Below, in pieces: positions 1,361-19,500 of a stretch of DNA of 32,000 bases. Source of the DNA: an uncultured Planctomycetaceae bacterium (lineage in GTDB: Bacteria; Planctomycetota; Phycisphaerae; Phycisphaerales; Zrk34); assembly GCA_964395825.1 (NCBI GenBank), contig CAYNCM010000007.1:10514-42513 (forward strand). Reading direction: 5' to 3'. The notes below the pieces were generated by a model, which did not search any database, had not been told where the DNA came from, and was given only the letters and a program-made list of their open reading frames with translations. The stretch's first letter is position 1. The number at the start of each line of letters is the position of its first letter. The position numbers and the translations under genes were made by a program.

Positions 1361-1720
1361 ATGCACGAGTTGTGCCCGATGCCCGAACGATCCACACGGA
1401 ATGTCGAACAACGGATGGAAGCGGTCATGTCGCTGCTGCGACGTGATGATGAGTCGGCGGTGAAGATCGCCCGACGCGTCGGCGTCAGCAAGCAGACGCT
1501 GTATCGCTGGCGGGATCAGTTTTTCGACGGCGGCAGGGCCGATTCCCGATACCCTCGATCAGGCGGTGGTGGCCCTGGCCATCGACAACTCCTGGTACGG
1601 CTACAATCGCATCGCCGTGATGTGCCGCCGCGACGGCCGGACCGTCACCGATCACCAGTGCGATGGTGTGATGAAGCGCCACGATCCATTGCACAAGCCC
1701 CGGCTTACGATTCCAGTTGA
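1361..1720 (+). mobile_element. IS3-family transposase relic (OrfA HTH plus start of OrfB, DDE core missing)
   Basis: One frame encodes an IS3/IS911-type HTH (SAVKIARRVGVSKQTLYRWRDQF). A second frame from ~1540 continues with the typical N-terminal segment of IS3 OrfB (IPDTLDQAVVALAIDNSWYGYNRIAVMCRRDGRTVTDHQCDGVMKRHDPLHKP). This is the usual two-frame IS3 layout. The reading frame dissolves after ~1710 and no integrase/DDE core follows. Confidence 0.55.
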
Positions 1721-3349: not shown

Positions 3350-5755
3350 ATGCGTTGTGCGATGATCGCCGCCGCCCTGCTCATCCTTGCCGGCTCGGCG
3401 TTCGCCACCGACCGCATCGACATCGAATCGTTCGATTACCGGTCCGTCGCCGCGGCCCGGTCGGCCTGGCGGCCGGTGGCGCCGAGCCCGCCGATCACCC
3501 TCATGCGCCGCAGCGCCGGCGGCGGGACCGTCGCCGTCATCCGCGCCGACCTCGGGAAACTCGAAGACCGCGCCTGTTACGACCGCAAGATCAAACTCGA
3601 CCTCAGCGCCGCTGGCCGCATCACGTTATCCGTCCATACCGATCGGCCCGAGGCGATCCGCAGCGGTACGATTTACTTCCAGTCCGGCGGGGGGTGGTAC
3701 GGCGGCTGGTTCGCCGTCGACGGCGACCAGTGGCAACCGATCACCCTCGACCGCCACGACTTCGCCCCCGAAGACGATCCCGCCGGCTGGTCGAACATCA
3801 CCGGTGTGCGCCTGTCGTTCTGGAAACAACCCGGTACGACCGGCCGCGTGACCGTCGCCGTCGACGATATTGCCGCCCGCACCGCACCGGTGCGCGTGGT
3901 GTTCGGCGATCGGTCGTCGGCCGATCCCGCCGAGGCCCGCTCGGTCAAACAGTATTGCCGCCGCGTGACCGATCTGCTGACACAAGCCGGCGTGAGGTTT
4001 GTGGTCATCAACGATACCGACGTTGAAGCCGGGGGCCTGTCCGGGGCGTCGGTCGCCATCTTCCCCCACAACCCGCACATGTCGCCAGAGGAAGTCGAGC
4101 GGACGATTCGCTTCATCGACACCGGCGGGAAGGTGATGGCGTTCTACAGCATTCCCGCGCGCCTCGCCGAGGCGATGGGCATGAAGCTCGTCGGCTGGCG
4201 TAAAGCGAAGCACGACGGCGAGCTGTCTTACGTTCGGTTCGCCGACCATGACCGTCAATTCCGGCAGGATTCGTGGAACATGCAGCAGGCGGCGCCGCTG
4301 GAGGAAGGCACGGCGGTGATCGCGCGCTGGGTGAATGCGGCCGGCCGCGGGGGTGACCCGGCGGTGCTGCGCTCGGGGCGCGGGCAGTGGATGACGCACG
4401 TGCTGACCGCCGGCGATGACGATGCCAAGCGCCGGTTCCTTGTGACGTCGATTGCGGCGCTGGCGCCGGCGCTCGGGCCGGCGCTGGCCGAAGCCGCGGT
4501 CGAGCGCGCCGCTGAACCGATCACCGGGGGCGCGGCGGCGGCACACCTCGATCGCGCCCGCGCCTCGGTTCCCGCTGGGCGGCTGGCCGAAGCAGAAGCG
4601 AAACTCGACGAGGCGGGCCAGTCGATCGCCCTGGCCCGGGCACACCTGGCGGCGGGGGGCCCACTCGATCTCCAGCGCGTGCTGACCTGGACCGACCGGG
4701 CCCGCGACGAGGCGCAACGCGCCATGATGCTCGCGTTTGCGACGTGGGACACGGACGTTCGCGGCGTGTGGTGTCACGATGCGGCGGGGGTGAAGGGCTG
4801 GTCGTGGAACCGGGCGGCCGAGCATCTGGCCGACTGCGGAATCAACGTGTTGTTCGTGAACATGCTGTGGGGCGGCCGGGCGTATTACCCGTCCGATCAC
4901 TTGCCCGCGGCGCCCGATTTACCCGAACGGGCCGACTACCTGCGCGACTGCCTCGCCGCCTGCCGGGCGCACGGCATCGAGGTGCACGTCTGGAAGGTCA
5001 ATTACAACCTGAGCGGGGCGCCGGCGGATTTCGTGGCGCGGATGCGGCGGGAAGGTCGGCTCCAGGCCGATCGGCAGGGCAACGAACTGCCGTGGTTGAG
5101 CCCGTCGCATCCGGACAACTTCGCGCTGGAGCGCAATTCGATGCTCGAAATCGTGCGGAAGTACGACGTGGCGGGTATTCACTTCGACTACATCCGCTAT
5201 CCGGGGGCGCGGGCGGACTATTCGAGCGGAGCGCGGCATCGCTTCGAGCGAGACGCCGGGATGACCGTTCGGCGCTGGCCGGGTGATGTGATCGACGGAC
5301 CGCTCGCCGATCGTTTTGCGCAGTGGCGGCAGGACCAGATCAGTCGGCTGGTCGAAGCGGTAAGCACCGAAGCGCATCGCATTCGGCCGGATGTGAAGGT
5401 GTCGGCCGCGGTGTTCGCCGAGTATCCTCGCTGTCGCTGGAACGTCGGACAGGACTGGGTGCGATGGGTCCGGCGCGGCTGGCTGGATTTCATCTGTCCG
5501 ATGAACTACACCCCGAGCGTCGATCAGCAGGCCCACTGGACGAAGCAGCAGCGCACACAGATCGGCCGGCGCATTCGGCTGTATCCGGGTGTGGGGGTGA
5601 CCGCGTCGCATTCGCAACTCGATCCGGTCGAAACCGCTGAGCAGATCATGGCGATCCGCGAAGCGGGCGGCGATGGGTTCGTGCTGTTCGAATACCGCCC
5701 GGCCACCGCGACCGATCACCTGCCGGCGCTGGGCGTCGGGCTGACGAAGCGGTAA
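3350..5755 (+). CDS. Secreted multidomain glycoside-hydrolase-like 10 (GHL10/DUF187) family protein
   Basis: ORF 3107-5755. Start moved to ATG 3350, which yields a signal peptide (MRCAMIAAALLILAGSAFATD). The C-terminal ~330 aa carry GHL10/DUF187 hallmarks: VRGVWCHD...GINVLFVNMLWGGRAYYPS...AHGIEVHVWKVNYN...LSPSHPDNFALERNSMLEIVRKYDVAGIHFDYIRYPG...FICPMNY. The N-terminal ~170 aa look like a beta-sandwich/CBM-like module, followed by a middle alpha/beta domain. Confidence 0.75.
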   Translation: MRCAMIAAALLILAGSAFATDRIDIESFDYRSVAAARSAWRPVAPSPPITLMRRSAGGGTVAVIRADLGKLEDRACYDRKIKLDLSAAGRITLSVHTDRPEAIRSGTIYFQSGGGWYGGWFAVDGDQWQPITLDRHDFAPEDDPAGWSNITGVRLSFWKQPGTTGRVTVAVDDIAARTAPVRVVFGDRSSADPAEARSVKQYCRRVTDLLTQAGVRFVVINDTDVEAGGLSGASVAIFPHNPHMSPEEVERTIRFIDTGGKVMAFYSIPARLAEAMGMKLVGWRKAKHDGELSYVRFADHDRQFRQDSWNMQQAAPLEEGTAVIARWVNAAGRGGDPAVLRSGRGQWMTHVLTAGDDDAKRRFLVTSIAALAPALGPALAEAAVERAAEPITGGAAAAHLDRARASVPAGRLAEAEAKLDEAGQSIALARAHLAAGGPLDLQRVLTWTDRARDEAQRAMMLAFATWDTDVRGVWCHDAAGVKGWSWNRAAEHLADCGINVLFVNMLWGGRAYYPSDHLPAAPDLPERADYLRDCLAACRAHGIEVHVWKVNYNLSGAPADFVARMRREGRLQADRQGNELPWLSPSHPDNFALERNSMLEIVRKYDVAGIHFDYIRYPGARADYSSGARHRFERDAGMTVRRWPGDVIDGPLADRFAQWRQDQISRLVEAVSTEAHRIRPDVKVSAAVFAEYPRCRWNVGQDWVRWVRRGWLDFICPMNYTPSVDQQAHWTKQQRTQIGRRIRLYPGVGVTASHSQLDPVETAEQIMAIREAGGDGFVLFEYRPATATDHLPALGVGLTKR

Positions 5756-5770
5756 GCGCGGTGGGGCCGA

Positions 5771-6895
5771 TCAGATGGGCTTGTCGTATATCCGCCAGGT
5801 TCTGGTGATGTCGAGTCCGGCCCGGCGGAGGCTGCCGCAGGCCAGGCCGTTCGATTCGAGCACCCACGAAAACTCCGCCGTCCGGATGCCCCAGTCGACC
5901 GCCGGCTGAGCCAGGCTGCTCATCATCAGCAGCACCAGCCCCGTGCGCTGGTAATCGGGCATGACCGTCGTCGCCAGCGCCCGCAGGTTGGTCAGCTTCC
6001 GCCGCCGGCCGAGCAGCGAGAGAAACCCGAACGGCAACAGCCGACCGTCGATCCGCCGGATCAGCGGGTTGTAATCGAGGATGTAGAACAGCGCGCCGAT
6101 CGTTTTGCCGTCGACCTCGGCGTAGGCGGTGAACTCGGGTACGATCAGGTGTCGCAGATCGCGGGCGATGTGGCGGACCTCCGATGCCGACAGCGGCACG
6201 AACCCCCACGTGTGCTCCAGCGAACGGTTGTAGATTTCCAGGTAGGTCATCACGTCGCGCAGGAAGTGCCGCCGATCCAGCGGGCGAATCATCAGGTTCG
6301 GCGTATCGAGGGCGCGGCGCACCGGCTCGCCGTACTTCTCGATCAGTCCGGGCAGCATGTCGATGTGCCCGGTGAACGCCAGAAGGTTCTGTGCCCCCGC
6401 GTAGCCGCACGCTTCGACCAGTTGCCGGTAGTACGGCTTGTGGTAGGGCATCATGAACGCCGACGGCGAGTCGAAACCTTCAACCAGCAGGCCGCACTCG
6501 TAATTCTGACTGGGATTCACCGGCCCGCGCACGGCGGTCTGCCCGCGCTCGGCCAGCCAGCGCTCGCCGGCGTCGAACAAGGCGCGGGCGCTGTCGACAT
6601 CCTCCTCGCACTCGAAGAACCCAAAGAACCCGCGCTGTTCGTTGTGCGTGTGGTTGTGGGCACGGTTGACGATCGCGCTGATCCGTCCGGTGATGCGCCC
6701 ATCGCGCTCAGCGATAAACGTCTGCGCCTCGGCCTGGTCGTAGAACGGATGCGACGCATAGCCGAGCAACTGGCGATGGCTGGCCAGAATCGGCGGGGTC
6801 CAGTGGGGATCATCGCGATACAGCCGCCAGGGCAGGTGAATGAAGCGGCGGCGGTCGGATCGGGATTGGACGGGCCGGACGGCTGGACGGGTCAT
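5771..6895 (-). CDS. GNAT-fold N-acyltransferase-like protein (~374 aa), translationally coupled to the upstream FAAL-ACP-AONS gene
   Basis: The ATG at 6893-6895 overlaps the upstream TGA at 6892-6894 (ATGA). The C-terminal half has a GNAT motif-A-like segment (VMPDYQRTGLVLLMM) and the tail SWVLESNGLACGSLRRAGL...RIYDKPI. The N-terminal half (FIHLPWRLYRDDPHWTPPIL...GFFGFFECEED...VRGPVNPSQNYECGLLVEGFD...MPYHKPYYRQLVEACGY) matches a widespread long-GNAT family of unknown substrate, as far as I can recall. Confidence 0.7.
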   Translation of the reverse strand: MTRPAVRPVQSRSDRRRFIHLPWRLYRDDPHWTPPILASHRQLLGYASHPFYDQAEAQTFIAERDGRITGRISAIVNRAHNHTHNEQRGFFGFFECEEDVDSARALFDAGERWLAERGQTAVRGPVNPSQNYECGLLVEGFDSPSAFMMPYHKPYYRQLVEACGYAGAQNLLAFTGHIDMLPGLIEKYGEPVRRALDTPNLMIRPLDRRHFLRDVMTYLEIYNRSLEHTWGFVPLSASEVRHIARDLRHLIVPEFTAYAEVDGKTIGALFYILDYNPLIRRIDGRLLPFGFLSLLGRRRKLTNLRALATTVMPDYQRTGLVLLMMSSLAQPAVDWGIRTAEFSWVLESNGLACGSLRRAGLDITRTWRIYDKPI

Positions 6896-9800
6896 GGTGT
6901 CGGTGCGTTGGCGTCGGCGGTGACGGCGGCAAGGCTCTCGGCGACGGCGTCGACCGTCTCGGCGATTTGCCCGGGCGTGTGGTCGACGGTGACAAAGAAC
7001 CGAAGCCGCGCGGCGTGTTCGGGCACGGCGGGATGGAGAATCGGCGAAACGTTGATGCCCCGCTCGGCCAGGGCAGCGGTCAATCGCAACGCGGTCAGCG
7101 AACGGCCAACCATCACCGGCACGACCGGCGTGTCAACCGGCGTGCCGATGTCGAGCCGGCGCTCGACGGCCAGGCGGCGGAACAACCCGAACCGCTCGGA
7201 CAGCGTCGCCACGCGCTGCGGTTCGGCGTGCAACAGGCGCAGGGCCGCACACGCGGCGGCGGCGTTCGGCGGCGACATGCCCACGCTGTACACGAATCCC
7301 GGGGCGGTGTATTTCAGGTATTCGACCAGCGCCTCGGAGCCGGCGATGTAACCGCCGCAACTGCCCAGCGCCTTGCTCAGCGTGCCCATCCAGATGTCCA
7401 CCTCGCGCGAATCGATGCCGAATTGCTCCGCCGAGCCTCGCCCGGTTTGACCAACCGTGCCCATGGCGTGGGCTTCGTCGACCAGCAGCAGAGCATGGTG
7501 GCGATGCTTGAGTTCGACAAAGCGCGGCAGGTCGGGCATGTCGCCGTCCATCGAGTACACGCCCTCAATCGCGATCAGCACGCGGCGATACTGCCGGCGC
7601 ACCGCGGTGAGCATTTCATCGAGCGCCCGGTAATCGTTATGGGCGAATGTCCGCCGCGCCGCGCCCGAGAGCATCGCGCCCTGGATGATGCTGTTGTGGG
7701 CCAGGGCGTCGTGGACGACCAGGTCGCGCTGGTCGAGCAGGTGGCCGATCGTGGTGACGTTCGTGGCGTGGCCGCTGACGAAGGCAAGCGCCGCGTCCAC
7801 GCCGTAGTGTTCGGCCAGCTCGCGCTCCAGTTCGCCATGCACGGTCTTCTCGCCGAACACCAGGCGACTGGCGTTGCTGCTGGTGCCGTAGCGATCAATC
7901 GCTTGCTTGGCGGCCTCGATGACCGGTTCGCAATGGGCCAGGCCGAGGTAGTCGTAACTGCAGAAGTTGATCATCGCCTGGCCGTCGATGATCTGCCGCT
8001 TCTCGGTAAGACCCTCGTGCACGCGGAAGTAGGGATTGGCCTGGCCCATCGCGCCCAGGTGGCGCTGCAGTGAGCCGTACTCGGCGAAGCGCTCGATGCG
8101 GTAGTGCTCAGGCGGAACCCTGCCGTTGCGCCGCGCGGTGCGTCGGCGGGCGTCGGACAGGTGCCGCTCGACCGCTCGGGCCAGGTCGCCGCAGGTGTAC
8201 GCCTCGGCGACCGCTTCGTCGGGCACGGGCGCGTCGAGCGTCTTTTCCAATAGCGCCACCAGTTCCAGCCGTTGCAGCGAGTCGAGGCCCAGCGCCGCCA
8301 GCGGCGTGTCGGGGTCGATGCGCCCGGCGGCCGGTCCGGCCAGCTCGCGCGCGTGACCCATCACCAGATCGAGCGCGGCGCCGGCCTGCGCGGGCTTGGA
8401 CGCCGCCCCGGTCGGCCCGGCGGGCCAGTTCAACCGCTGGGCGATCACGTTCAATTCATCGTCGGCCAGCAAACGGGCGCAGGCCCGGCGCTGCACCTTG
8501 CCGCTGGTGGTGCGCGGCACGGTGCGCCCGCGGACGAGCACCACGCCGTCGAGCGCCAGATCATGCCGTTCGGCCACGGCGCGGGTGATCGCGTCGATCA
8601 CCTCACTGAAATCATCGTGGCCGTTCCGCTCGACTTCGTGGACCAGCACGATGCGCTGGGCGCCGTCGATGTCGGCGCTGAACGCCGCGCCGTCGCCCCC
8701 GGCCAGTAAGTTGTGGCTGTTGCGGGCGGTCTGCTCGATGTCGTGGGGATAATGGTTCACCCCGCGCACGATGATCAGATCCTTCAGCCGACCGGTGCAG
8801 AACAGTTCGCCGTCACGCATCAGGCCCAGGTCGCCGGTGCGCAGGAACGGGCCATCGCCGTCCGCCAGGCGCGATTCGAACGCGCTTTGCGAATCGTGCG
8901 GCTTGTTGAAGTATCCGGCGGCGACGCTCGGGCCGGCGGTCCAGATTTCCCCGATCCGCCCGTCCGGCAGCGTTTCGTGGGTGTGGGGATCGACAATCAG
9001 CACCCGATGGTCCGGTATCGGTGGTCCGCAGGAAACCAGCCGACGCCCGGCGCCCGAGCCGGCGGCATCGTCGAACGATTCGACGCGCGGTTCGCGCCCG
9101 CCGGCGCCGGTGACCATCAGGGTCGATTCGGCCAGGCCGTAACACGGCAGAAACGCTTGACGCCTGAAACCGCAGTCGGCGAACGCCTCGGCGAAGCGTT
9201 CGAGCGTTTCGGGTCGGATGGGCTCGGCCCCGTTGAATGCGACGTTCCACGAGGACAGGTCGAGCCGCCGCCGATCTTCGGGGCTGATCTTCCGCACGCA
9301 CAGGTCGTAGATGAAGTTCGGCCCGCCGCTGATCGTGCCGCGGTATTGCGAGATCGCCCGCAACCAGCGCAGCGGCCGGGACAGAACCGACATGGGCGGC
9401 AGCACGATGCTCGGTCCGCCGACGTGAATGGTTTGCAGGATCGCCCCGATCAGGCCCATGTCGTGGTACGGCGGCAGCCAGGTGACGCCCACGCCGTCGG
9501 GCGCCGAGCCGAAGGATTGCTCAATGCACGCGGAGTTGTGGGCGAGGTTGTCGTGGGTGACGATGACGCCGCGTGGCGTACCGGTCGAGCCGGAGGTGTA
9601 TTGCAGCATCGCCGGGTCGGTCGGCGCGAGGTCGGGTTGGTGCCATCGGTCGGCCCGGTCCTCGTGGATTGCGTCGGTGGCCAGCCAGGTCAGGTCGAAG
9701 TCGTCGGCGAGATTGGCCGCGCGCTGGGCGAGGGCGTCGGTGGTCAGGGCGATGCGCGGCGCCGCATCGCGGGCGGTGGAACGGAATCGCTCGGCCATGC

Positions 9801-10122
9801 GGTTACGCCGGGGCGGATAGGTGGGCACGGCGGTGATGCCGGCGTACAGGCAGCCGAAGAAGGCGGTGATGAAATCCAGCCCCGGCGCATAGACCAGCAA
9901 CGCCCGTTCGCCCGCCAGGCCGCGCGACTGCAATTCGGCGGCGATCGCCCGGCAGCGCCGGTCCAGTTGTCCGTAGGTCAGTTCCTCCGAAGGCGTCTGC
10001 CCGTCGGTGAGCATGACAAACGCGCGCCGGTCGGCGTGGGCGTCGGCCCAGTGGCGGGCGGTCCGCACGAGATCAGGCCGGGCGGATTGGATGGGCTGGC
10101 GGCCGACGAATGGCACCGGCAA
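6892..10122 (-). CDS. Tridomain fatty acyl-AMP ligase (FAAL) - acyl carrier domain - PLP-dependent alpha-oxoamine synthase (AONS/SPT/BioF family)
   Basis: 1076 aa.
- Adenylation domain, aa 1-~565: FFGCLYAGITAVPTYPP, LQYTSGSTGTPRGV, PPYHDMGL, GEIWTAGPSVAAGY, LRTGDLG, TTSGKVQRR.
- Carrier domain: LGLDSLQRLEL, with Ser615 at codon 8278-8280.
- AONS domain, aa ~680-1065: NFCSYDYLGL, SGHATN, EGVYSMDGD, LLVDEAHAMG, and the PLP-lysine motif GTLSKALG with Lys917 at codon 7372-7374. Confidence 0.9.
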   Translation of the reverse strand: MPVPFVGRQPIQSARPDLVRTARHWADAHADRRAFVMLTDGQTPSEELTYGQLDRRCRAIAAELQSRGLAGERALLVYAPGLDFITAFFGCLYAGITAVPTYPPRRNRMAERFRSTARDAAPRIALTTDALAQRAANLADDFDLTWLATDAIHEDRADRWHQPDLAPTDPAMLQYTSGSTGTPRGVIVTHDNLAHNSACIEQSFGSAPDGVGVTWLPPYHDMGLIGAILQTIHVGGPSIVLPPMSVLSRPLRWLRAISQYRGTISGGPNFIYDLCVRKISPEDRRRLDLSSWNVAFNGAEPIRPETLERFAEAFADCGFRRQAFLPCYGLAESTLMVTGAGGREPRVESFDDAAGSGAGRRLVSCGPPIPDHRVLIVDPHTHETLPDGRIGEIWTAGPSVAAGYFNKPHDSQSAFESRLADGDGPFLRTGDLGLMRDGELFCTGRLKDLIIVRGVNHYPHDIEQTARNSHNLLAGGDGAAFSADIDGAQRIVLVHEVERNGHDDFSEVIDAITRAVAERHDLALDGVVLVRGRTVPRTTSGKVQRRACARLLADDELNVIAQRLNWPAGPTGAASKPAQAGAALDLVMGHARELAGPAAGRIDPDTPLAALGLDSLQRLELVALLEKTLDAPVPDEAVAEAYTCGDLARAVERHLSDARRRTARRNGRVPPEHYRIERFAEYGSLQRHLGAMGQANPYFRVHEGLTEKRQIIDGQAMINFCSYDYLGLAHCEPVIEAAKQAIDRYGTSSNASRLVFGEKTVHGELERELAEHYGVDAALAFVSGHATNVTTIGHLLDQRDLVVHDALAHNSIIQGAMLSGAARRTFAHNDYRALDEMLTAVRRQYRRVLIAIEGVYSMDGDMPDLPRFVELKHRHHALLLVDEAHAMGTVGQTGRGSAEQFGIDSREVDIWMGTLSKALGSCGGYIAGSEALVEYLKYTAPGFVYSVGMSPPNAAAACAALRLLHAEPQRVATLSERFGLFRRLAVERRLDIGTPVDTPVVPVMVGRSLTALRLTAALAERGINVSPILHPAVPEHAARLRFFVTVDHTPGQIAETVDAVAESLAAVTADANAPTP

Positions 10123-10269
10123 TCTCCCTGACCGTCATGCGGGGCGACAGACCGTACGCATCACCCGCCGCCGCGTTACCCATACTGTACGTCAGCGTCC
10201 CATCACGGCCAAGCGCAAAGCATTCGAACGTTCCGGTCCGCATATCCCCGATTGATCCGATGCGGTAGA

Positions 10270-11406
10270 ATGCCCGCCGTGTATCGCATTGCGCTGCGCA
10301 TGTTGTTCGCCGATAAGCTCAAGTACATCGTGCTGGTGTGCGGATTGGCTTTCGCCGTCTTGCTGATCACCCAGCAGTGCGCGATTTTCCTGGGCATTCT
10401 GATCCGCGCCACCGGGCCGCTGCAGAACATCGGCCAGGCCGATATCTGGGTCGCCGGGGAACACACCTACTACATCGACATGGTCCTGCCGATGAACGAT
10501 CGCGACCTGTACCGGGTGCGGGCGGTGCCGGGCGTGCAGTGGGCCGAGCCGTTCTTCTTCTTCAACACCATCGTGCAACTGCCCGACGGGCGTTTCACCG
10601 TGGTGCAGGTGGTGGGGGTGGATCGTCAGACGATGATTGGCCAGCCGCCAAAGGTGCTCACCGGTCGGCTGGACGATCTTCGCATCCCCGATGCGGTGCT
10701 GCTGGACAAGAAGGGCCGGCGGCGTTTGAAGGACATCCAGGTCGGCGACACGCTGCGGCTGAACGACCGCCGCGCGATGGTGGTCGGGTTCTGCAACGCC
10801 AAGAAGGGCCTGCTGTCCAAGGCGCTGATGTACACCACCTACCAGAACGCGATGCGCTTCGTGCCGCTCGGTCGACAACGCATGACCTACATTCTGGTGA
10901 AGGTGAAGGACGGCTGGGACATCGGGCAGATCTCAGCCGACATCAGTCGCATCGAGGGGATCCACGGCTGGACGGCGGACCAGATGCGCCGGCGCAACAT
11001 CGACTTCATCCTGCGGGACACGTCGGTCGGGCTGAACTTCGCGATCATGGTCGGGCTGGGCACGTTCGTGGGGCTGGTGGTGTCGATGGCCACGTTCAAC
11101 CAGTTCACCAACGACAACCTGCCGCATTACGCGGTGCTCAAGGCGATGGGGGCGCGATCGCGCACGCTGATTGGCATGGTGGTGGTCCAGTCGATGACGG
11201 TGGGGCTGATCGGTTACGGGCTGGGCGTGGGCTTGGCGGCGATCTTCACCCGCACCGTGCGCAACCAGGCCGATGAACTGGTCGCCTACATCCCCTGGCA
11301 ACTGCTGGTCGTGGCGCTGGTGCCGATGCTGCTATGCGTCAGCCTCGGAGCGTTCGTGGCGCTGAGGCGGGTGTTGCGACTCGATCCGGCGACGGTGTTC
11401 GCATGA
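10270..11406 (+). CDS. ABC exporter permease, FtsX-domain MacB/DevC type
   Basis: An N-terminal TM helix (KYIVLVCGLAFAVLLI) is followed by a ~230-aa extracytoplasmic domain. Three C-terminal TM helices carry the FtsX-like segment (HYAVLKAMGARSRTLIGMVVVQSMTVGLIGYGLGVGL). Start taken at ATG 10270; TTG 10252 is an alternative. The stop overlaps the ATPase start (ATGA at 11403-11406). Confidence 0.8.
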   Translation: MPAVYRIALRMLFADKLKYIVLVCGLAFAVLLITQQCAIFLGILIRATGPLQNIGQADIWVAGEHTYYIDMVLPMNDRDLYRVRAVPGVQWAEPFFFFNTIVQLPDGRFTVVQVVGVDRQTMIGQPPKVLTGRLDDLRIPDAVLLDKKGRRRLKDIQVGDTLRLNDRRAMVVGFCNAKKGLLSKALMYTTYQNAMRFVPLGRQRMTYILVKVKDGWDIGQISADISRIEGIHGWTADQMRRRNIDFILRDTSVGLNFAIMVGLGTFVGLVVSMATFNQFTNDNLPHYAVLKAMGARSRTLIGMVVVQSMTVGLIGYGLGVGLAAIFTRTVRNQADELVAYIPWQLLVVALVPMLLCVSLGAFVALRRVLRLDPATVFA

Positions 11407-12161
11407 ACCCGATGACCAACCATAATCCGCTGGTGCGCCTGCGCGGCGTGCACAAGACGTTCGGCGAAGGCCGCGCGGCCGTCCACGCGCTGCGCGGCGT
11501 CGACCTCGACGTCAACGCCGGGGAACTGGTCATGCTCATGGGCCCCAGCGGTTGCGGCAAGACCACGCTCATCTCCATCATCTCCGGCGTGCTCAGCCCG
11601 TCGAATGGCGAAGTCGAAGCGTTCGGCTTCCGCTGGACGAACCTCAACGAAGACCGCAAAGCCCTGCGCCGGGCGCAGTACATCGGTTACGTGTTCCAAC
11701 AGTTCCACCTGGTGCCGCAGCTTTCGGCCCTGGAGAACGTGGCCGTGCCGCTGCTGATCCGCCGGGTGAAGCGTGACGAGGCGCTGAAGCGTTCAGCCCG
11801 GGCGCTGGGCGATGTGGGCCTGGGCGATCGCCTGGACGATCCGCCTCGCCAACTCAGCGGCGGAATGCAGCAACGCGTCAGCGTGGCCCGGGCCCTGGTC
11901 GGCCGACCGCGGCTGCTGGTCTGCGATGAGCCGACCGCCAACCTCGATGCGGACAACGGCCAGGCGGTGATGGAACTGCTCCGACGGGCCAGCAAGGACA
12001 CCGATCACGCCGGCCACGCCTGCGCGGTGATCGTGGTCACCCACGACGCCCGCACCGAGGAATTCGCCGACCGCATCGAATTCATGGAAGACGGCCGCTT
12101 CGTCGCCGACGCGGTGGGCGTGCATCATGCCACCGCGAAGCCTGCCAACGAAAGCGGGTGA
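11403..12161 (+). CDS. ABC transporter ATP-binding protein (MacB/LolD/DevA-like)
   Basis: Walker A GPSGCGKTT, Q-loop FQQFHL, signature LSGGMQQRV, Walker B LLVCDEPT and the H-loop VVTHD are all present. The ATG at 11403 overlaps the permease stop. Confidence 0.9.
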   Translation: MNPMTNHNPLVRLRGVHKTFGEGRAAVHALRGVDLDVNAGELVMLMGPSGCGKTTLISIISGVLSPSNGEVEAFGFRWTNLNEDRKALRRAQYIGYVFQQFHLVPQLSALENVAVPLLIRRVKRDEALKRSARALGDVGLGDRLDDPPRQLSGGMQQRVSVARALVGRPRLLVCDEPTANLDADNGQAVMELLRRASKDTDHAGHACAVIVVTHDARTEEFADRIEFMEDGRFVADAVGVHHATAKPANESG

Positions 12162-12201
12162 CGCTGTTCGCGAACTCGGCAACCAAGACGGGAATCGGAT
12201 C

Positions 12202-13245
12202 ATGATCAAATGGCTCAGCATTCTGTTGGCGATTGGCGGCCTGGTACTCGGGCTGGTGGTGGTCATCACCACGACCACCCGCCCGCCGGAGATCGAACCG
12301 GCCGGTCCACCGTCGATCAACCCCTTCCCCCGAGGCATCGCGGCCACCGGACTCATCGAGGCGGCCAGCCGAAACCTCGAACTGGGCCCCGCCGAACCGG
12401 GAACCGTGGCCGAGGTGTTCGTGCAGGTCAACGATTCAGTCACCGACGACCAGGCGCTGTTCCGCCTGGACAGCCGCGCCCTGGAGGCCGAGCGGCTGCG
12501 CGCCGTTGCCGCCGGGAAGATCGCCCGGGCGCGGCTCGATCGGCTCCAGGCCGCGCCACGCGCCGAGGATCTCGCTCCCCTCGTCGCCGCGGTCGATCGC
12601 GCCCAGGCGAAGTACGATGACGCCAAGCGGGAATACGAACAGGCCCAACAGGTCTACGCCCAGCGGGCGGCGGGCAGCGCCGAGGTGGCCCATCGCAAGA
12701 ACGCCATGCTTGCGGCCAAGGCGGTGCTCGACCAGGCCCAGGCCGAACACGACCGCCTCGCCGCCGGCGCCTGGAAGTACGACCTGGCCGTGGCCGAGGC
12801 GTCGCTCGAAGAAGCCTACGCCGCCGTTCGGGCCATCGAAATGCGCATCGAACGCATGACCGTGCGCTCGCCGGTCGACGGCATCGTGCTGCGCCGTGAA
12901 GTCGAACCGGGCGAGTTTGTCGCGGTCGGCTCACCCACGCCGGCCATGGTGGTCGGCGACTTAAGCGCCCTGCACGTGCGGGCCCAGGTCGATGAAGAAG
13001 ACGCCGGCCAACTGGTCGAAGGCGCCGAGGCGGTCGGCATGATCCGCGGGCCCGACCGCCAGCGCGTACCGCTCGAACCACTGCGCATCGAACCCATGGC
13101 CGTGCCCAAGCAGCAACTGGCCAACTCGCCGATCGAACTGGTCGACACCCGCGTGGTCCAGGTGATCTACCGCGTCGAAGGCGACCCCGGCATCCGCCTG
13201 TACCCCGGCCAACTGATCGATGTGTTCATCAGCACCCAGCCCTAG
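12202..13245 (+). CDS. HlyD/DevB-type membrane fusion (periplasmic adaptor) protein
   Basis: Start at ATG 12202 gives an N-terminal anchor (MIKWLSILLAIGGLVLGLVVVI). A lipoyl-like half-motif follows (GTVAEVFVQVNDSVTDDQALFRLD), then a long Ala-rich coiled-coil hairpin. The second lipoyl half and beta-barrel follow (VRSPVDGIVLRREVEPGEFV...LHVRAQVDEEDAGQL). Confidence 0.8.
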   Translation: MIKWLSILLAIGGLVLGLVVVITTTTRPPEIEPAGPPSINPFPRGIAATGLIEAASRNLELGPAEPGTVAEVFVQVNDSVTDDQALFRLDSRALEAERLRAVAAGKIARARLDRLQAAPRAEDLAPLVAAVDRAQAKYDDAKREYEQAQQVYAQRAAGSAEVAHRKNAMLAAKAVLDQAQAEHDRLAAGAWKYDLAVAEASLEEAYAAVRAIEMRIERMTVRSPVDGIVLRREVEPGEFVAVGSPTPAMVVGDLSALHVRAQVDEEDAGQLVEGAEAVGMIRGPDRQRVPLEPLRIEPMAVPKQQLANSPIELVDTRVVQVIYRVEGDPGIRLYPGQLIDVFISTQP

Positions 13246-13419: not shown

Positions 13420-14625
13420 TCAGCCACCCGGAACCGCGACCTGCCCTGCGCCGTAGCCCAGCCGTGCGAAGGCGAACGCCCATTCTTCGCCAATGCGGTT
13501 GATCGTCGCGGCGTCGAGGCGATGGGTGTTCTTGCGGTAATCGCGCCGGGCATTGAGGTGTTGCTCGATCGCCGGCCGGGCGGGCTGGAAGTCGCCGAGG
13601 TCGAGTTTCTCGTAAATCCCCTGCAACTGGCCCAGCGGGTCGCGCTCCAGATCCTCGTAACGCAGTTCGACGAGGTGGCCGGCGGGGATCAGCCCGCGGG
13701 TGTCGAAGTAGCGATGCATGACGGTGCGGTACTGACTGAACACCTGTTCGCGGATGTCCGCGACCCAGGCGCATTGCAGGCCGAGCCGTTCGACCATTCG
13801 GCAGCGCATGCGCAGGGTGGAGGCGAACACGTCGAACGGATCGCGCTGAATGTGAATGAAGCGGGCCTCCGGAAACAGTTCGAGCAGTTGTCGAATGCGG
13901 GCGGTGTTCGCCGGATTCTTCAGCACCAGCCGCCGGCCGTCGCGGGCCTTGGTGATGGATTTGAGGTAGCGCACGAAATCGCGCTGCCACCGCGCCCGCT
14001 CCTCGTCAGTCAGTCCCTCGAACATCACCGCCCGGCGGAAGTGGGCCATGGCGTGGCGCGGGAAGTAGAAGCCGTGGTAGTATGATACGTCGCCGAGCAC
14101 GGCCATGGCGGCCTCTTCCTCGAACGGGGCGTCCATGTCCAGGGCGATCTGGTCCATCGGGCGCGTCGACGGAATCGCCCAGCCGAACAGGTAACGCAGG
14201 TACCAGCCGGCGAAGATCGACTCGGGTGCCAGGGCCTGCCACATGGACACGTATCCGAAGCGTTCATCGCGGCTGAGCAGTTCGTGCAGCCAGGTGGTGC
14301 CGCTGCGCCAGTGGCCGATGATGAAAACCGGCGGGTGCTTGATCTCGACCCGGTCGAGGGTCGGTACGAAACGCAGACGATGATCGAGCCGCGTCAACAC
14401 CCCCGCCGCCGAGTGGACACTGATCGTCATCGCCCGGCCGAACGCATCGCGACCGATCGGCCCGTACCGGTGAAGCAGCCGAATCCAGTGAACCATCGAC
14501 GTGGCGCACATCAAATGCATCAGCCCGCGACCGGGACGGATCCGATCGTCATCAGGTGGTGCGGCGGATTCGGGCGAACTGGTTCGGCACACGGCGGACA
14601 GTTTCGGTTCCGTCCGAAAAGGCAT
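13420..14625 (-). CDS. PAPS-dependent sulfotransferase family protein (start codon uncertain)
   Basis: 5'-phosphosulfate-binding loop PPVFIIGHWRSGTTWLHELL is present. The downstream 3'-PB-like region is LVLKNPANTARIRQLLELFPEARFIHIQRDPFDV. The N-terminal region has the layout of a bacterial Sulfotransfer_3-like family. The first ~35 codons abut an IS relic and may not be coding; alternative ATGs are at 14520 and 14496. Confidence 0.8.
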   Translation of the reverse strand: MPFRTEPKLSAVCRTSSPESAAPPDDDRIRPGRGLMHLMCATSMVHWIRLLHRYGPIGRDAFGRAMTISVHSAAGVLTRLDHRLRFVPTLDRVEIKHPPVFIIGHWRSGTTWLHELLSRDERFGYVSMWQALAPESIFAGWYLRYLFGWAIPSTRPMDQIALDMDAPFEEEAAMAVLGDVSYYHGFYFPRHAMAHFRRAVMFEGLTDEERARWQRDFVRYLKSITKARDGRRLVLKNPANTARIRQLLELFPEARFIHIQRDPFDVFASTLRMRCRMVERLGLQCAWVADIREQVFSQYRTVMHRYFDTRGLIPAGHLVELRYEDLERDPLGQLQGIYEKLDLGDFQPARPAIEQHLNARRDYRKNTHRLDAATINRIGEEWAFAFARLGYGAGQVAVPGG

Positions 14626-15093: not shown

Positions 15094-16701
15094 ATGTGGG
15101 GTCAACCCGGGTTTGGAATCGAGTCGGCCATGGCGGCCGGCGGAGCGGGCGGGGGCGGCAAGCCCGGCGCGGGGCCGGTGATCTTCGCGGCAGTAGTGCT
15201 GATGTTCGCATCGCACGGCCCGGCATGGGCGGATGCCGGCTCGTCGGTCCAGGCCGCCCGCACCGAAGCGCCCGTGGCTGTGGCCGGCCTCACCGCGCCG
15301 GGCGACCGGTCGCGCGACGCGGTGATCGAGTCGTTGCAGCGCGAGATGTCGCTGTTGCGCCGCGAGGTCAGGGAGCTTCGGGCCGAGCGGAATCGCTCGT
15401 GGCTCAACGAGCGCCGGGCGGCGGAGGTCAAGGCCCTGGTGCGCCAAGTGATCGCCGACGCCGAGACCCGCGCCAGTCTGCTGGACAGCGAACTGCTGGC
15501 CGGCCACAACGGCAAGCACTTCTTTCTGGCCAGCGCCGACGGCCGGTTCCTGATGACACTTAAGGGCCAGGCCCAGGTCCGTTACATCGCCAACTTCGCC
15601 GACGACGGCGCGACCACCGCCGCCAACTTCGACGAGCAGATGACCGGCTTCCAGTTCCGGCGGCTGAAGCTGAAGTTCGCCGGCCACGCCTTCGACCCCA
15701 GGCTCAGCTACAAGATCACCCTCGCCAGCACCCGCGACCACAACGAGGTCTATCTGGAAGAAGCGTTGATCGGTTATGAACTGGCGGACAACCTGGCCCT
15801 CGCCGGCGGACGCACCAAGGCCCCGTTCCTGCGGGAAGAGCTGATCAGTTCATCGAAGCAATTGACGGTCGAGCGATCGCTGGTCAACGAATCGTTCACC
15901 GCGGGCTTCGTGGAAGGCCTGGTGGTGCGGTGGCAGCCCTGCGAAGCGGTGAAGCTGGCCGCGGCGCTGACCGACGGCGCCGGGTCGGGTGAGGAAACGG
16001 TCGCCGCGGGCGGCGCGGGGGCGGACTGGAACGCGGCGGACGTGGATTTCGCTTTGACGGCAAGGCTGGACGTGAAGCTCGCCGGCGACTGGGGCCAGTG
16101 GAAAGACACCAGCGCCGGGTCGGGCGATCAGATGGGCCTGTTCGTGGGCGCGGCGTTGCATTACCAGAAAACGGAAACGGGCTTCGATGCCACGTCGCTC
16201 ATTCCGCCGGGCGCGCCGAACCTTGCCGATGACGTGGTGCTGTGGACGGTTGACGGTTCGCTGGAGATCCTTGGCCTTGGTGTGTACGCGGCGGTGATGG
16301 GCATGCACACCGAAGCGCCGAACAACGCCGGCGTCCTGTTCGTCAGCGGTCAGCCGGAGGATCTGAATCACTACGGCTTCGTGATTCAGGCCGGCTACAT
16401 GGTCATCCCCGACACGCTGGAGCCGTTCGTGCGCTACGAGCATCTGCTGATCGACGACCAGGTGCTGCCGGCGGTGGGCGGGGTGAGCCAGGAAGACGAC
16501 CCGAACCTGCTGACGGTGGGGTTCAACTACTACGTGCACAAGCACGGGGCAAAGTTCACGGCGGATCTGGTTTACGCCTTCCAGTCGCTGGGTGGGGCGG
16601 GCGCGGCATTCGGGGTCAGCGACGGATTGGGCCTGCGGGCGGACGAGGTGGACCAGGACGGTCAACTCGCCTTGCGGGCGCAGATGCAACTGCTTTTCTA
16701 A
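15094..16701 (+). CDS. Phosphate-selective porin O/P (OprO/OprP) family outer-membrane protein with N-terminal coiled-coil extension
   Basis: AGGAG lies 7 nt before ATG 15094. The signal-like segment is PVIFAAVVLMFASHGPAWA. Porin_O_P-type strands are present: FFLASADGRFLMTLKGQAQVRYIANF, FQFRRLKLKFAGHAFDPRLSYKITL, VYLEEALIGYELADNLALAGGRTKAPF. The C-terminus ends in an aromatic residue (LRAQMQLLF). It sits next to the phoBR-pst genes. Confidence 0.8.
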   Translation: MWGQPGFGIESAMAAGGAGGGGKPGAGPVIFAAVVLMFASHGPAWADAGSSVQAARTEAPVAVAGLTAPGDRSRDAVIESLQREMSLLRREVRELRAERNRSWLNERRAAEVKALVRQVIADAETRASLLDSELLAGHNGKHFFLASADGRFLMTLKGQAQVRYIANFADDGATTAANFDEQMTGFQFRRLKLKFAGHAFDPRLSYKITLASTRDHNEVYLEEALIGYELADNLALAGGRTKAPFLREELISSSKQLTVERSLVNESFTAGFVEGLVVRWQPCEAVKLAAALTDGAGSGEETVAAGGAGADWNAADVDFALTARLDVKLAGDWGQWKDTSAGSGDQMGLFVGAALHYQKTETGFDATSLIPPGAPNLADDVVLWTVDGSLEILGLGVYAAVMGMHTEAPNNAGVLFVSGQPEDLNHYGFVIQAGYMVIPDTLEPFVRYEHLLIDDQVLPAVGGVSQEDDPNLLTVGFNYYVHKHGAKFTADLVYAFQSLGGAGAAFGVSDGLGLRADEVDQDGQLALRAQMQLLF

Positions 16702-16761
16702 CGGAAAGGGCCGATAACGCGGCGCAAACCGCGATTACTCACCGGACCATCATCTTTTCAG

Positions 16762-16798
16762 GGGCGATCAGGCATAAACGGGCCTGGTCGCCTTTTCT
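16762..16798 (+). terminator. Rho-independent terminator after the porin gene
   Basis: 11-bp stem GGCGATCAGGC (16763-16773) pairs with GCCTGGTCGCC (16782-16792), including one G-U pair. The loop is 8 nt (ATAAACGG). It is followed by TTTTCT. Confidence 0.7.
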
Positions 16799-16804
16799 AA
16801 AAAG

Positions 16805-16837
16805 TAATATATTCTTAACGGAATCTGAAACCGGTTA
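16805..16837 (+). promoter_or_regulatory. Candidate Pho box upstream of phoB (autoregulation)
   Basis: Phased 11-mers TAATATATTCT / TAACGGAATCT / GAAACCGGTTA. The middle unit matches the first pstS unit TAACGGTTTCT at 9 of 11 positions. It lies in an AT-rich patch just after the porin terminator. Confidence 0.35.
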
Positions 16838-16904
16838 GATCATCATGACGCGTCCACTGGCCAAACCCGTACGGAAGTTCACCGACATTCCGCGTGAGCC
16901 CGCC

Positions 16905-17669
16905 ATGATGAACGCGTCCAAACCGTCGCCCGCCCGGGCCCGCCGCACCCATGCCCTGTCTTCAGACGCCGCCGCCACCCGCGCGACGATCATGGTCGTC
17001 GAAGACGAGCAGGACCTGCAGGACCTGCTGCACTACAACCTGGAGCGCGAAGGCTACAACGTCGCCGCGGCCACGCGGGGCGAAGAGGCGCTTAAGTCAA
17101 TCCGCAAGAAGCGGCCGGACATGGTGCTGCTGGATCTGATGCTGCCGGGCATCGACGGGCTGGAAGTCTGCCGGGCTTTGCGGTCGGACGAAGCGACGCG
17201 CGATCTGCCGATCGTGATGCTCACCGCCAAGGGCGAAGAGGCGGACGTGGTGACGGGGCTGGAACTGGGCGCCGATGATTACATCACCAAGCCGTTCAGC
17301 CCACGGGTGCTGATCGCGCGGATCAAGGCGGTGCTGCGGCGACGGGGCGGAACGGACGGGACGGGCGAGGAAGATGAACCGTTGCGGGTGGGAACGCTGA
17401 TGGTGGACCCGGGCCGCTACGAGGTGCGGGTGGAAGACAAGGCGGTCTCGCTGACGCGGACGGAATTCGGCATCTTGCAGTTGCTGATGCGCCGGCCGGG
17501 GCGCGTGTTCACCCGCAGCCAGATCGTCTCGGAAGTGCAGGGGGCCAACGTCGCGGTGACGGATCGTTCGGTGGACGTGCACATCGTGTCGTTACGGCGT
17601 AAGCTGGGTTCGGCCGGTCAACTGATCGAGACGGTGCGGGGCGTGGGGTACCGGCTGGAGGACAGCTAG
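16905..17669 (+). CDS. phoB: Phosphate regulon response regulator, OmpR/PhoB family
   Basis: Receiver domain: IMVVEDEQDL, PDMVLLDLMLPGIDG, PIVMLTAKG. Winged-helix output: LTRTEFGILQLLMRRPGRVFTRSQI...VDVHIVSLRRKL...IETVRGVGYRL. Start is ambiguous (ATG at 16845, 16905 or 16992). I chose 16905 because the candidate Pho box and promoter overlap 16845, and 16992 would clip strand beta-1. Confidence 0.85.
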   Translation: MMNASKPSPARARRTHALSSDAAATRATIMVVEDEQDLQDLLHYNLEREGYNVAAATRGEEALKSIRKKRPDMVLLDLMLPGIDGLEVCRALRSDEATRDLPIVMLTAKGEEADVVTGLELGADDYITKPFSPRVLIARIKAVLRRRGGTDGTGEEDEPLRVGTLMVDPGRYEVRVEDKAVSLTRTEFGILQLLMRRPGRVFTRSQIVSEVQGANVAVTDRSVDVHIVSLRRKLGSAGQLIETVRGVGYRLEDS

Positions 17670-17673
17670 GCTG

Positions 17674-19500
17674 ATGGGTCGCCGCCTGATCTGGAAAGTC
17701 GCGCCCGGCTATATCGTCGTCATTGCTCTGAGCACGCTGGTGGTGGCCTACTTGGCGGGCCGCTCGGTCGGAACGTTCTTTGAACATCACGTCGACCGCG
17801 AACTGACGAGCAAGGCCCACCTGATCGCGCGTCAGGTTCGGCCGATGCTCGAACGGGCGGACGACCACGCCGTCGCCGAGTTGTGCAATGCCCTGGCGGA
17901 CGAAGCGGGGGCCCGGATCACGGTGATCGCCCCGGACGGACGGGTGCTGGGCGATACGCATGAAGATGCCCGGGGGATGGACAACCACGCCCGCCGCCCG
18001 GAAGTGATCGAGGCCATGGCCCGCGGCGAAGGGCGCAACACCCGATTCAGCGACACGCTCGAACAGCGGATGAAGTACGTGGCGATGAAGCTGGTCGGCG
18101 AGGGTGATCAACCGCTGGCGGTGGTGCGCACGGCGATGAGCACGGCGAACATGGAAGCGGCGCTGGGCAGCGTGCGGCGGCGGATCGCGATCGGCGGCGC
18201 GGTGCTGGTGGTGCTGGCGGGCCTCGTGACGATCCTCGTGTTCACCCGGTACATCAGCGGACCGCTGCGGCGACTGCAGCGGGGCGCCTACCGCTTCGCC
18301 GCCGGCGACCTCAGCGGCGGACTGCCCATGTCGGATGTCCGCGAGATCAGCGACCTGGCCGAATCACTCAACGGCATGGCCCGGCAACTCGACGAGAAAA
18401 TCCGCACCATCACACGGGAATCCACCGAACGCCAGACGGTGCTGGCGAGCATGATCGAAGGCGTGTTCGCCGTCGACGCCGAAGAACGCGTGCTGACGAT
18501 GAACGACGCGGCGGCGGACCTGTTCCAACTCGACGCGCAGGCGATCGTCGGCCGGCGCATTTTTGAGGTCGCCCGGCACAGCGAACTGCAGGAACTGGTC
18601 ACCGACACCCTGGCCAGCGACAAACCGATCGAGCGCGACCTGAGCGTGCGAACCGGCGGACGCCAGCGCCACCTGCAGGCCCACGGCGCTCCGCTGCGGG
18701 AAACGACCGGCACCAGCGCCGGGGCGGTGATCGTGGTCCACGACGTGACGCGGATTCACGAACTGGAACAGGTACGGCGGCAGTTCGTGGCCAACGTCTC
18801 GCACGAATTGAAAACGCCCATCTCGGCGATTCACGCGGCGGTGGAAACGCTGCTCGATCCACGCGGCGGGTCGGATGATGATCGCCGCCGGTTCCTGGGC
18901 ATGATCGAGCGGCAGGCGGCGAGGCTGAACGCGATCGTCGAAGACCTGCTCGCCCTGGCCCGGCTGGAACAGCAGGCCGAGGATCGCCAGATCGACCGGC
19001 GCCAGCACGAACTGCTGCCCATCCTCCGCGGGGCGGTGGAAACCTGCCAGGCCGGCGCCCAGGCGCGGGACATCAAGCTCACGGTGCGCGGCGATCCGCA
19101 CCTCAGCGCCCCGATCAACCCCACGCTGCTGAGCCAGGCGGTGGTGAACCTGCTGGACAATGCGATCAAGTATTGCGGGTCGGGCTCGTCGGTGACGGTC
19201 AAGTGCGAACGGGAGGATGGGGAGCTGATCCTCTCGGTCCGCGACGACGGGCCGGGCATCGCCGCCGAGCACCTGGGCCGGCTGTTCGAGCGGTTCTACC
19301 GGGTCGACCGCGGTCGCAGCCGGGAGCTGGGCGGGACGGGTCTGGGTCTGGCGATCGTCAAGCACGTGGCCCAGGCGCACGGGGGCCAGGTGTCGGTGAA
19401 AAGCCGGGTCGGGCGGGGTTCGACGTTCCGCATTCATTTGCCGCGCGAGAAGCGCGACGCCCAGCCGGCCACGCCGGCGGACGTGGCGACGCCATCCTGA
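17674..19500 (+). CDS. phoR: Phosphate regulon sensor histidine kinase
   Basis: It starts 4 nt after the phoB stop. Domain order is TM helix, extracytoplasmic segment, second TM, HAMP, then a PAS-like region. HisKA H-box is FVANVSHELKTPISAI. HATPase_c motifs are NLLDNAIKY, RDDGPGI and GGTGLGLAIVKH. Confidence 0.85.
   Translation: MGRRLIWKVAPGYIVVIALSTLVVAYLAGRSVGTFFEHHVDRELTSKAHLIARQVRPMLERADDHAVAELCNALADEAGARITVIAPDGRVLGDTHEDARGMDNHARRPEVIEAMARGEGRNTRFSDTLEQRMKYVAMKLVGEGDQPLAVVRTAMSTANMEAALGSVRRRIAIGGAVLVVLAGLVTILVFTRYISGPLRRLQRGAYRFAAGDLSGGLPMSDVREISDLAESLNGMARQLDEKIRTITRESTERQTVLASMIEGVFAVDAEERVLTMNDAAADLFQLDAQAIVGRRIFEVARHSELQELVTDTLASDKPIERDLSVRTGGRQRHLQAHGAPLRETTGTSAGAVIVVHDVTRIHELEQVRRQFVANVSHELKTPISAIHAAVETLLDPRGGSDDDRRRFLGMIERQAARLNAIVEDLLALARLEQQAEDRQIDRRQHELLPILRGAVETCQAGAQARDIKLTVRGDPHLSAPINPTLLSQAVVNLLDNAIKYCGSGSSVTVKCEREDGELILSVRDDGPGIAAEHLGRLFERFYRVDRGRSRELGGTGLGLAIVKHVAQAHGGQVSVKSRVGRGSTFRIHLPREKRDAQPATPADVATPS

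Follow-up and report, generated by a model that had tools for sequence, protein, structure and literature searches.

A candidate compact ceramide-type lipid operon in a planctomycete: a FAAL-ACP-AONS fusion gene overlapped by a GNAT gene of the YghO/bCerS family

Analysis of a 32,000-nucleotide stretch of DNA from an uncultured Planctomycetaceae bacterium (contig CAYNCM010000007.1, positions 10,514 to 42,513; hereafter the window) revealed a two-gene operon on the minus strand, in which a gene for a 1076-aa fusion of fatty acyl-AMP ligase (FAAL), acyl carrier protein (ACP) and alpha-oxoamine synthase (AONS) domains is overlapped by a gene for a 374-aa GNAT-fold N-acyltransferase. With a probability of roughly 0.7, the pair would constitute a compact ceramide-type lipid operon, its product being an N-acylated long-chain amino-ketone or amino-alcohol. 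This reading is based on gene structure, homology to the ceramide genes of Escherichia coli and Caulobacter, predicted fold and clade-specific synteny, and from these we infer the chemistry of each step, the serine substrate, the acyl donor and the role of an adjoining exporter.

The fusion gene (6892..10122, minus strand) starts at or near position 10122 and closes with a TGA at 6894-6892; the GNAT gene (5771..6895, minus strand) opens with an ATG at 6895-6893 and ends at 5771. The two share an ATGA start/stop overlap (6892..6895, minus strand; GACACC-ATGA-CCCGTC), confirming what an earlier note on this DNA had said of the start of the 374-aa gene. The overlapping ATG was taken to be the true GNAT start because homologues align from residues 1-5. 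A 4-nt gene overlap is a common operon junction and of little weight alone; it gained weight here because it is retained in three independent relatives, namely the loci L007 (GNAT 72% identical) and L095 and L096 (GNAT 65% identical). The overlap supports co-transcription of the two genes and possibly also entails their translational coupling; the fixed stoichiometry of an obligate co-expression, as claimed in the earlier note, over-reads it. A promoter and terminator scan of 5500-10400 using consensus promoters yielded nothing useful, and the intergenic region at 10123..10269, which separates the lipid operon from a divergent exporter operon, is therefore presumed from its position only to be the site of both promoters.

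The 374-aa protein aligned end-to-end with E. coli YghO (379 aligned residues, 32% identity, 51% positives, E 3e-65). An alignment of 11 sequences, covering YghO and five planctomycete subclades, contained 38 invariant columns, and the window GNAT has all 38, including E340, E346 and N348 in the EFSWVLESN motif. E. coli yghO is given as the orthologue ('aca') of Caulobacter CC_1154 (PMC9386255), which has been named cerS (PMC11324152); the bacterial ceramide synthase has also been described as bcerS, CCNA_01212 (PMC9393093). This bCerS is a cytoplasmic acyltransferase which converts 3-ketosphinganine to oxidised ceramide ahead of the periplasmic reduction by CerR (PMC11087976). Because of the full-length homology to YghO and the presence of all family-invariant residues, the window GNAT is, as judged by sequence, a member of the YghO/bCerS family, the connection running through E. 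coli YghO and the published yghO-CC_1154 orthology. A bCerS-type enzyme had been suggested for this gene, and the suggestion is supported.

The assignment to the GNAT superfamily was marginal by sequence and is clear by fold, as predicted by modelling. Pfam Acetyltransf_1 (PF00583) matched residues 259-355 with 23 bits against a cut-off of 20.7 (E 1e-4), with no individual stretch passing by itself; the recognisable acyl-CoA-type domain of the tandem GNAT is thus the C-terminal one. No NCBIfam model matched either the window GNAT or E. coli YghO, and a sequence search against PDB chains gave no match even at E 10. An AlphaFold2 (AF2) model, built with 37 relatives, reached a predicted local distance difference test (pLDDT) score of 81 and a predicted template-modelling score (pTM) of 0.82. 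Using Foldseek, this model was matched to solved tandem GNATs at E values of 1e-13 to 1e-10 (best 2.7e-13), with template-modelling (TM) scores of about 0.55-0.63 and 10-13% identity; among them were the clavulanic-acid protein CBG (2wpw), MAB_4324 (7q3a), a Clostridium glucosamine N-acetyltransferase (5kf1) and the mycothiol synthase MshD (1ozp). The family comprises more than 4,225 database relatives. The best 120 of these are about 46-72% identical to the window protein and mostly 366-385 residues long, those with a named source come mostly from Planctomycetota, and none of the 120 contains an aminotransferase domain. Source labels of family members read 'GNAT family N-acetyltransferase' or 'hypothetical protein' only.

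Two further observations were made on this protein family. A segment at residues 122-155 is family-specific, highly conserved and without a confident AF2 model; within it, residues 125-153 (about nt 6437-6523) form the sole low-confidence stretch of the model (pLDDT <50) and at the same time the family's most conserved motif, RGPxNPSxNYxxGLLxxGFDxPPxF, which E. coli YghO retains in part. This loop possibly binds substrate or membrane and becomes ordered upon binding. In addition, four database proteins of 600-650 aa from long contigs (P0003, P0004, P0007 and P0008) consist of two family copies, joined or tandem-adjacent, and GNAT paralogues therefore coexist within one genome; related truncated matches (P0010 and P0011) carry the label Thermoguttaceae.

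The 1076-aa protein was resolved by Pfam into an AMP-binding domain (residues 23-405), a DIP2-like C-terminal AMP domain (448-561), a PP-binding domain (591-651) and an Aminotran_1_2 domain (717-1059). On the minus strand, these correspond to a fatty acyl-AMP ligase domain (residues 23-561, 8440..10056; PF00501, E 3.7e-67, plus PF23024), an acyl carrier domain (8170..8352; PF00550, E 3.5e-11) and an Spt-like alpha-oxoamine synthase domain (6946..7974; PF00155, E 7.9e-46). Both catalytic motifs are intact, with a predicted phosphopantetheine site at Ser615 in GLDSL (codon 8278-8280) and the lysine for pyridoxal phosphate (PLP), Lys917, in GTLSKAL (codon 7372-7374). The best NCBIfam models were fatty-acid--AMP ligases for the first half and BioF, Kbl and Spt models for the last third, all below their cut-offs. 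Compared with the E. coli sphingolipid cluster, the FAAL part was 34% identical to the ligase over 535 residues (E 2e-74) and the AONS part 34% identical to Spt over 360 residues (E 8e-55); the carrier part gave a weak match to the ACP which spans the DSL motif (E 4e-5). The identity of the upstream gene, named as FAAL-ACP-AONS in the earlier note, was thus corroborated.

Because its parts match the E. coli ligase, ACP and Spt, the fusion is by homology the single-chain equivalent of AasR, AcpR and Spt. These three proteins co-occur in Rhodobacteria and are together required for the formation of 3-oxo-sphinganine in E. coli (PMC9386255). In the literature searched, we found no description of a FAAL-ACP-Spt(-like) fusion, and none in which such a fusion is combined with a dedicated bCerS paralogue and a DevBCA-like pump; a survey from 2013 did record PLP domains embedded within assembly-line proteins in Planctomycetes. 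The best 120 relatives of the fusion all have the four-domain architecture, measure about 1070-1210 residues and are 49-64% identical; the sources named among them are Sedimentisphaerales, Planctomycetaceae, Thermogutta and one Sideroxyarcus metagenome-assembled genome (MAG). The protein from the latter (P0126, full-length, 56% identical) lies on a 4-kb contig of a betaproteobacterial MAG labelled Sideroxyarcus sp., and its presence there would be due either to horizontal transfer or to a binning error.

Conservation of the pair was analysed in both directions. In the forward direction, 88 loci encoding GNAT family members were collected and searched for the fusion, and in a neighbour-joining tree the FAAL-linked GNATs fell into one clade. 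In a bootstrapped tree with three further loci added and with E. coli YghO as outgroup, this clade had 16 members and a bootstrap of 96/100. Thirteen of them could be judged by the length of their upstream DNA, and in every one the fusion was found upstream on the same strand; in L008, L009 and L020, the DNA ahead of the GNAT gene measures just about 1.5 kb, too little for a judgement. The pairing put forward in the earlier note is thus conserved in relatives. Two layouts were found. In the first, the GNAT gene directly overlaps the fusion gene; this holds for the window, for L001, which is identical to it, and for L007, L095 and L096. The second, seen in L058, L043, L028, L019, L082, L076, L060 and L010, has the order fusion, ABC ATPase, ABC-2 permease, conserved 324-aa protein, GNAT and a convergent short-chain dehydrogenase/reductase (SDR). 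L091 (Sedimentisphaerales) has the fusion and the GNAT followed by a convergent SDR.

In the reverse direction, starting from relatives of the fusion led to nine distinct loci. A YghO-like GNAT lay within 10 kb or less in five of the nine, with more than one GNAT subclade represented; the GNATs of L093, L097 and L099 are 34-39% identical to the window GNAT and thus belong to other subclades. A clear CerR-like SDR stood beside the fusion in five of the nine loci and a weaker SDR in two more; L092 had neither a YghO-like GNAT nor an SDR.

In most relatives outside the subclade of the window, a CerR-like SDR adjoins the pair. Aligned with E. coli CerR along its entire length, these SDRs show 24-28% identity (E 1e-16 to 1e-24), and their NCBIfam match pattern is that of CerR. 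The triad of Spt-like, bCerS-like and CerR-like proteins is hence widespread in Planctomycetota, which agrees with a report of 138 Black Sea Planctomycetota MAGs encoding Spt-like proteins (PMC11334938).

Upstream of the fusion gene, a divergent three-gene operon encodes an ABC exporter, consisting of a DevC/MacB-type permease (10252..11406, plus strand, likely true start ATG 10270; Pfam MacB_PCD and FtsX; NCBIfam DevC E 6e-26), a DevA/LolD-like ABC ATPase (11334..12161, plus strand; Pfam) and an HlyD-family membrane-fusion protein, i.e., a periplasmic adaptor (12127..13245, plus strand; Pfam HlyD_3 and HlyD_D23, NCBIfam). DevBCA is the cyanobacterial exporter of heterocyst glycolipid, a lipid made by a neighbouring cluster. 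The best NCBIfam matches of the window permease and ATPase were DevC and the DevA family, respectively. All three window proteins scored below the Dev cut-offs (DevC 91.3 vs 290, DevA family 203 vs 295.8 and DevB 54 vs 129 bits); the exporter resembles DevBCA in architecture only, and the likeness would be one of functional analogy and not of membership. A five-gene module (HlyD, ABC ATPase and permease diverging from fusion and GNAT), together with the ATGA overlap, recurs in L007, L095 and L096; the divergent permease gene was seen in all three of these loci and the HlyD gene in L007 and L095. On the 3' side of the pair, the window has a convergent GHL10-domain gene, ending 15 bp from the GNAT stop, and L095 and L096 have a TrmB-like gene. 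Since the outer flanks differ between the window and its relatives, the module and not the neighbourhood is the conserved unit; for the same reason, the flanking GHL10 gene and the sulfotransferase gene next to the exporter operon were rejected as parts of it.

Several side observations concern the clusters of relatives. The 324-aa protein (L058 9012-9986; also in L043, L028, L019, L010, L060, L082, L076 and L093) lies between the ABC-2 permease and the GNAT in the Pirellulales-type clusters, where no other gene is as well conserved (71-83% identity); the window lacks it. It belongs to no Pfam family, gave weak matches to surface-carbohydrate biosynthesis models, BFO_1060 glycosyltransferase models and Epimerase_2, and may be a lipid glycosyltransferase. 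An LPG_synthase_C gene (MprF C-terminal type) follows the CerR-like SDR in L058 (12225-13340), L008, L009 and L020, which hints at aminoacylation of a lipid. Another GNAT clade (L002-L006, L013, L026, L049, L066, L067 and L070) combines a bCerS-like GNAT with a beta-ketoacyl synthase gene after it, and in L005 and L066 at least, a divergent, clearly CerR-like SDR precedes the GNAT; no AONS gene was found in this clade within the available DNA, up to 8-10 kb. The larger fusion clusters of L097 (317-18667) and L099 (8598-23255) add a 2,200-2,500-aa synthase of the polyunsaturated fatty acid/polyketide synthase (PUFA/PKS) type, with the domain order NMO-KS-AT-ACP-KR, and that of L097 also has a PS-DH protein, a phosphopantetheinyl transferase (PPTase), a B12-radical-SAM enzyme and a PAP2 phosphatase. 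This suggests that the L097 and L099 clusters produce sphingoid-type lipids with unusual chains.

In the proposed pathway, the FAAL domain of the fusion would adenylate a free fatty acid and load the acyl group on the carrier domain in cis, at the phosphopantetheine of Ser615. The PLP domain (Lys917) would condense the acyl thioester with an amino acid, most probably L-serine, under loss of CO2 to give a 3-keto long-chain base, the free amine of which would be N-acylated by the YghO/bCerS-family GNAT from acyl-CoA or acyl-ACP to yield a 3-oxo-ceramide-like lipid. A CerR keto-reductase would stand outside the module, being either encoded elsewhere or dispensed with, so that the ketone is retained. 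The divergent DevBCA/MacB-like tripartite ABC pump would probably extract the lipid from the inner membrane.

A number of results weigh against a ceramide-type product. Searches by tblastn with E. coli CerR and the SDR of L058, and Pfam analysis of the larger open reading frames (ORFs), revealed no CerR-like or other SDR gene in the 32 kb of the window, and none lies beside the pair in L095 and L096. The absence of a nearby keto-reductase, as stated in the earlier note, accordingly extends to the whole window; the limitation to two genes proposed there applies to the subclade of the window and not for the system at large, where in most other relatives the reductase adjoins the pair. The AONS domain stayed below all Spt equivalog cut-offs (NF047600 298.9 vs 640, NF047599 260.9 vs 500 and NF047603 201 vs 670) and scored higher on the BioF model, itself failed (366.8 vs a cut-off of 426), than on the Spt models. 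Among solved structures, its best match was the serine palmitoyltransferase (SPT) of Sphingobacterium (3a2b/8guh; 220 bits, E 6e-64), with BioF, Kbl and human SPTLC2 following at 204-206 bits; by these comparisons, SPT is barely separated from Kbl and BioF, so that serine is a presumed substrate. The Kimura distance to E. coli YghO is 1.54 for the FAAL-linked GNAT clade as against 1.34 for other planctomycete clades; because of this greater distance, the FAAL-linked clade may be a functionally shifted paralogue. Finally, about three quarters of the sampled GNAT family members with adequate flanks adjoin no AONS gene.

The missing reductase is compatible with ceramide-type chemistry. In Caulobacter, the amine is acylated before the keto group is reduced, the reductase CerR resides in the periplasm, and oxidised ceramide builds up in a cerR mutant (PMC11087976). 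A locus devoid of CerR is therefore chemically coherent.

The choice of amino acid was also approached through active-site residues. The SPT-type motif around the PLP lysine is G-T-F-S-K-S (PMC10196870), of which the S-K is present in the GTLSKAL of the AONS domain (Lys917), although this feature discriminates only weakly. Solved SPT contacts the hydroxyl of serine for the most part via water molecules and via the PLP phosphate, and for this reason the use of serine is not readable from the sequence. The attempt to derive serine specificity from active-site residues was abandoned, given that the hydroxyl is read via water and that profile scores fail to separate SPT from BioF and Kbl.

The strongest rival explanation accepts the same chemistry with an amino acid other than serine (e.g., glycine, alanine or cysteate) and with the ketone kept, the product being an exported non-sphingoid N-acyl alpha-amino-ketone lipid or signal. 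It draws on the failed Spt cut-offs, on the near-equidistance of the AONS domain from SPT, Kbl and BioF structures, on the GNAT clade being a distinct paralogue, at a greater distance from YghO than the other clades of planctomycetes, and on the lack of CerR in the window, L095 and L096; moreover, conservation of the pair extends to a dedicated exporter of the efflux type, and in the module a pump takes the place of the reductase. Against this stand the SPT as the best solved AONS match, the SPT-type S-K in the PLP motif, the sister members of the same GNAT clade which adjoin CerR-like SDRs, as in canonical ceramide clusters, and the many Planctomycetota MAGs counted with Spt-like genes (PMC11334938). 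On balance, we consider this rival unlikely. A related proposal, to be regarded as speculative yet not far-fetched, is that the shifted bCerS paralogue and the FAAL-ACP-AONS fusion form a self-contained two-enzyme factory for a 3-keto N-acyl alpha-amino-ketone lipid, possibly with a non-serine head, which the DevBCA-like pump expels. If true, the product would be a planctomycete lipid of a class not yet described, either of the envelope or secreted, and not an ordinary ceramide.

It would be much less probable that the GNAT merely shares an operon with the fusion and transfers acetyl or short-chain groups, or acts on an amino sugar, a polysaccharide or a small molecule. The closest solved folds do include glucosamine N-acetyltransferase, mycothiol synthase and Eis, most GNAT family members occur in contexts without an AONS gene, and the neighbourhood contains carbohydrate and sulfate genes (GHL10, sulfotransferase and sulfatase). 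These structure matches are, however, just 10-13% identical, compared with a sequence match to YghO at E 3e-65, and a transferase of unrelated function would agree poorly with the clade-specific linkage to the fusion (13/13 judgeable members), with the conserved ATGA overlap and with the flanking GHL10 gene not being conserved in relatives. Hardly credible is an aminoacyl-tRNA-dependent transferase of the FemX or MprF C-terminal type, adding an amino acid to a lipid amine or head group: Foldseek also matched FemX and aminoacyl-tRNA-dependent peptide synthases and some related clusters have an LPG_synthase_C gene, but the FemX-type matches were weaker than those to acyl-CoA-dependent tandem GNATs, the sequence homology leads to YghO/bCerS, and the LPG_synthase_C protein of the relatives is encoded by a separate gene and belongs to another family than the GNAT.

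Returning to the ceramide-type operon, the pathway type is most likely a known one, of which the window holds a compact version with a fused base-synthesis enzyme. Four of the five activities of bacterial ceramide synthesis, for which Caulobacter and E. coli need five separate genes, would be contained in two overlapping genes. Such a unit would be minimal and portable and would suit tests, by expression in another host, of pathway order, acyl-donor use and substrate range. Bacterial ceramide synthesis has been worked out only recently; metagenomic surveys predict sphingolipids in Planctomycetota, and the window locus supplies a concrete gene architecture for them. The occurrence of the reductase in sister clusters and its absence from the subclade of the window amount to a natural experiment that bears on 3-oxo-ceramides as possible end products. 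Tying the GNAT family, with more than 4,000 relatives, to YghO/bCerS would also improve its annotation.

Regarding the remaining genes of the window, a sulfotransferase gene without an NCBIfam match (13420-14625, minus strand) immediately follows the exporter operon. About 2 kb past this operon, a phosphate-starvation-type set (15094-24367) comprises genes for a phosphate-selective porin O/P, a response regulator, a PAS/HAMP histidine kinase, a Pst-type permease, a PstB-like ABC ATPase and PhoU. Caulobacter reportedly makes a glycosphingolipid under phosphate limitation; together with the phosphate gene set, this makes phosphate regulation of the lipid operon worth considering. Further downstream, an FGE-sulfatase-domain protein with a PEP-CTERM tail (25257-26252, plus strand) and a sulfatase (26542-28293, minus strand) are encoded. 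A short helix-turn-helix/transposase-type ORF (1361-1720, plus strand), situated between the genes for trigger factor and the GHL10 protein, may be what is left of an insertion sequence close to the module's edge.

Compared with known systems, the window GNAT shares with the solved tandem GNATs (2wpw, 7q3a, 5kf1 and 1ozp) the presence of two GNAT domains per chain in its model, and differs from them in its low identity (10-13%) and in its proposed lipid substrates. Like DevBCA and MacAB-type pumps, the exporter has an FtsX/MacB_PCD permease, a separate ATPase and an HlyD adaptor; unlike DevBCA, it shows another gene order and scores far below the curated cut-offs. With the non-canonical, megasynthase-fed route to sphingoid bases, the locus would have in common that a carrier-bound acyl chain feeds an alpha-oxoamine synthase, and its relatives L097 and L099 carry large PKS/PUFA-type synthases; in the window, the acyl chain would be taken up by the FAAL instead of being built by a PKS, the alpha-oxoamine synthase is fused to the loading domains and the N-acyltransferase is part of the operon.

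The closest system is the five-gene ceramide pathway of Caulobacter crescentus and of B-type strains of E. coli, with AasR (acyl-ACP synthetase/FAAL), AcpR, Spt, bCerS (CC_1154/CCNA_01212, YghO) and CerR. In the E. coli strain R10 cluster (L089), spt, the ACP gene, an NAD-dependent epimerase gene (CerR) and the fatty acyl-AMP ligase gene lie on one strand, with yghO divergent. The window deviates from this pathway in that three proteins are fused in one 1076-aa polypeptide, in that its GNAT belongs to a separate, planctomycete-specific clade and its gene overlaps the fusion gene, where in the five-gene systems it is distant or divergent, in that CerR is absent from the locus and in that the transporter is a DevBCA/MacB-type pump in place of LptF/G paralogues. 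In common with the five-gene pathway, it has homologues of all four cytoplasmic activities (FAAL 34%, Spt 34%, YghO 32% and a carrier domain), its proposed order would likewise run from base synthesis via N-acylation to reduction, and in its relatives a CerR-like extended SDR adjoins the pair.

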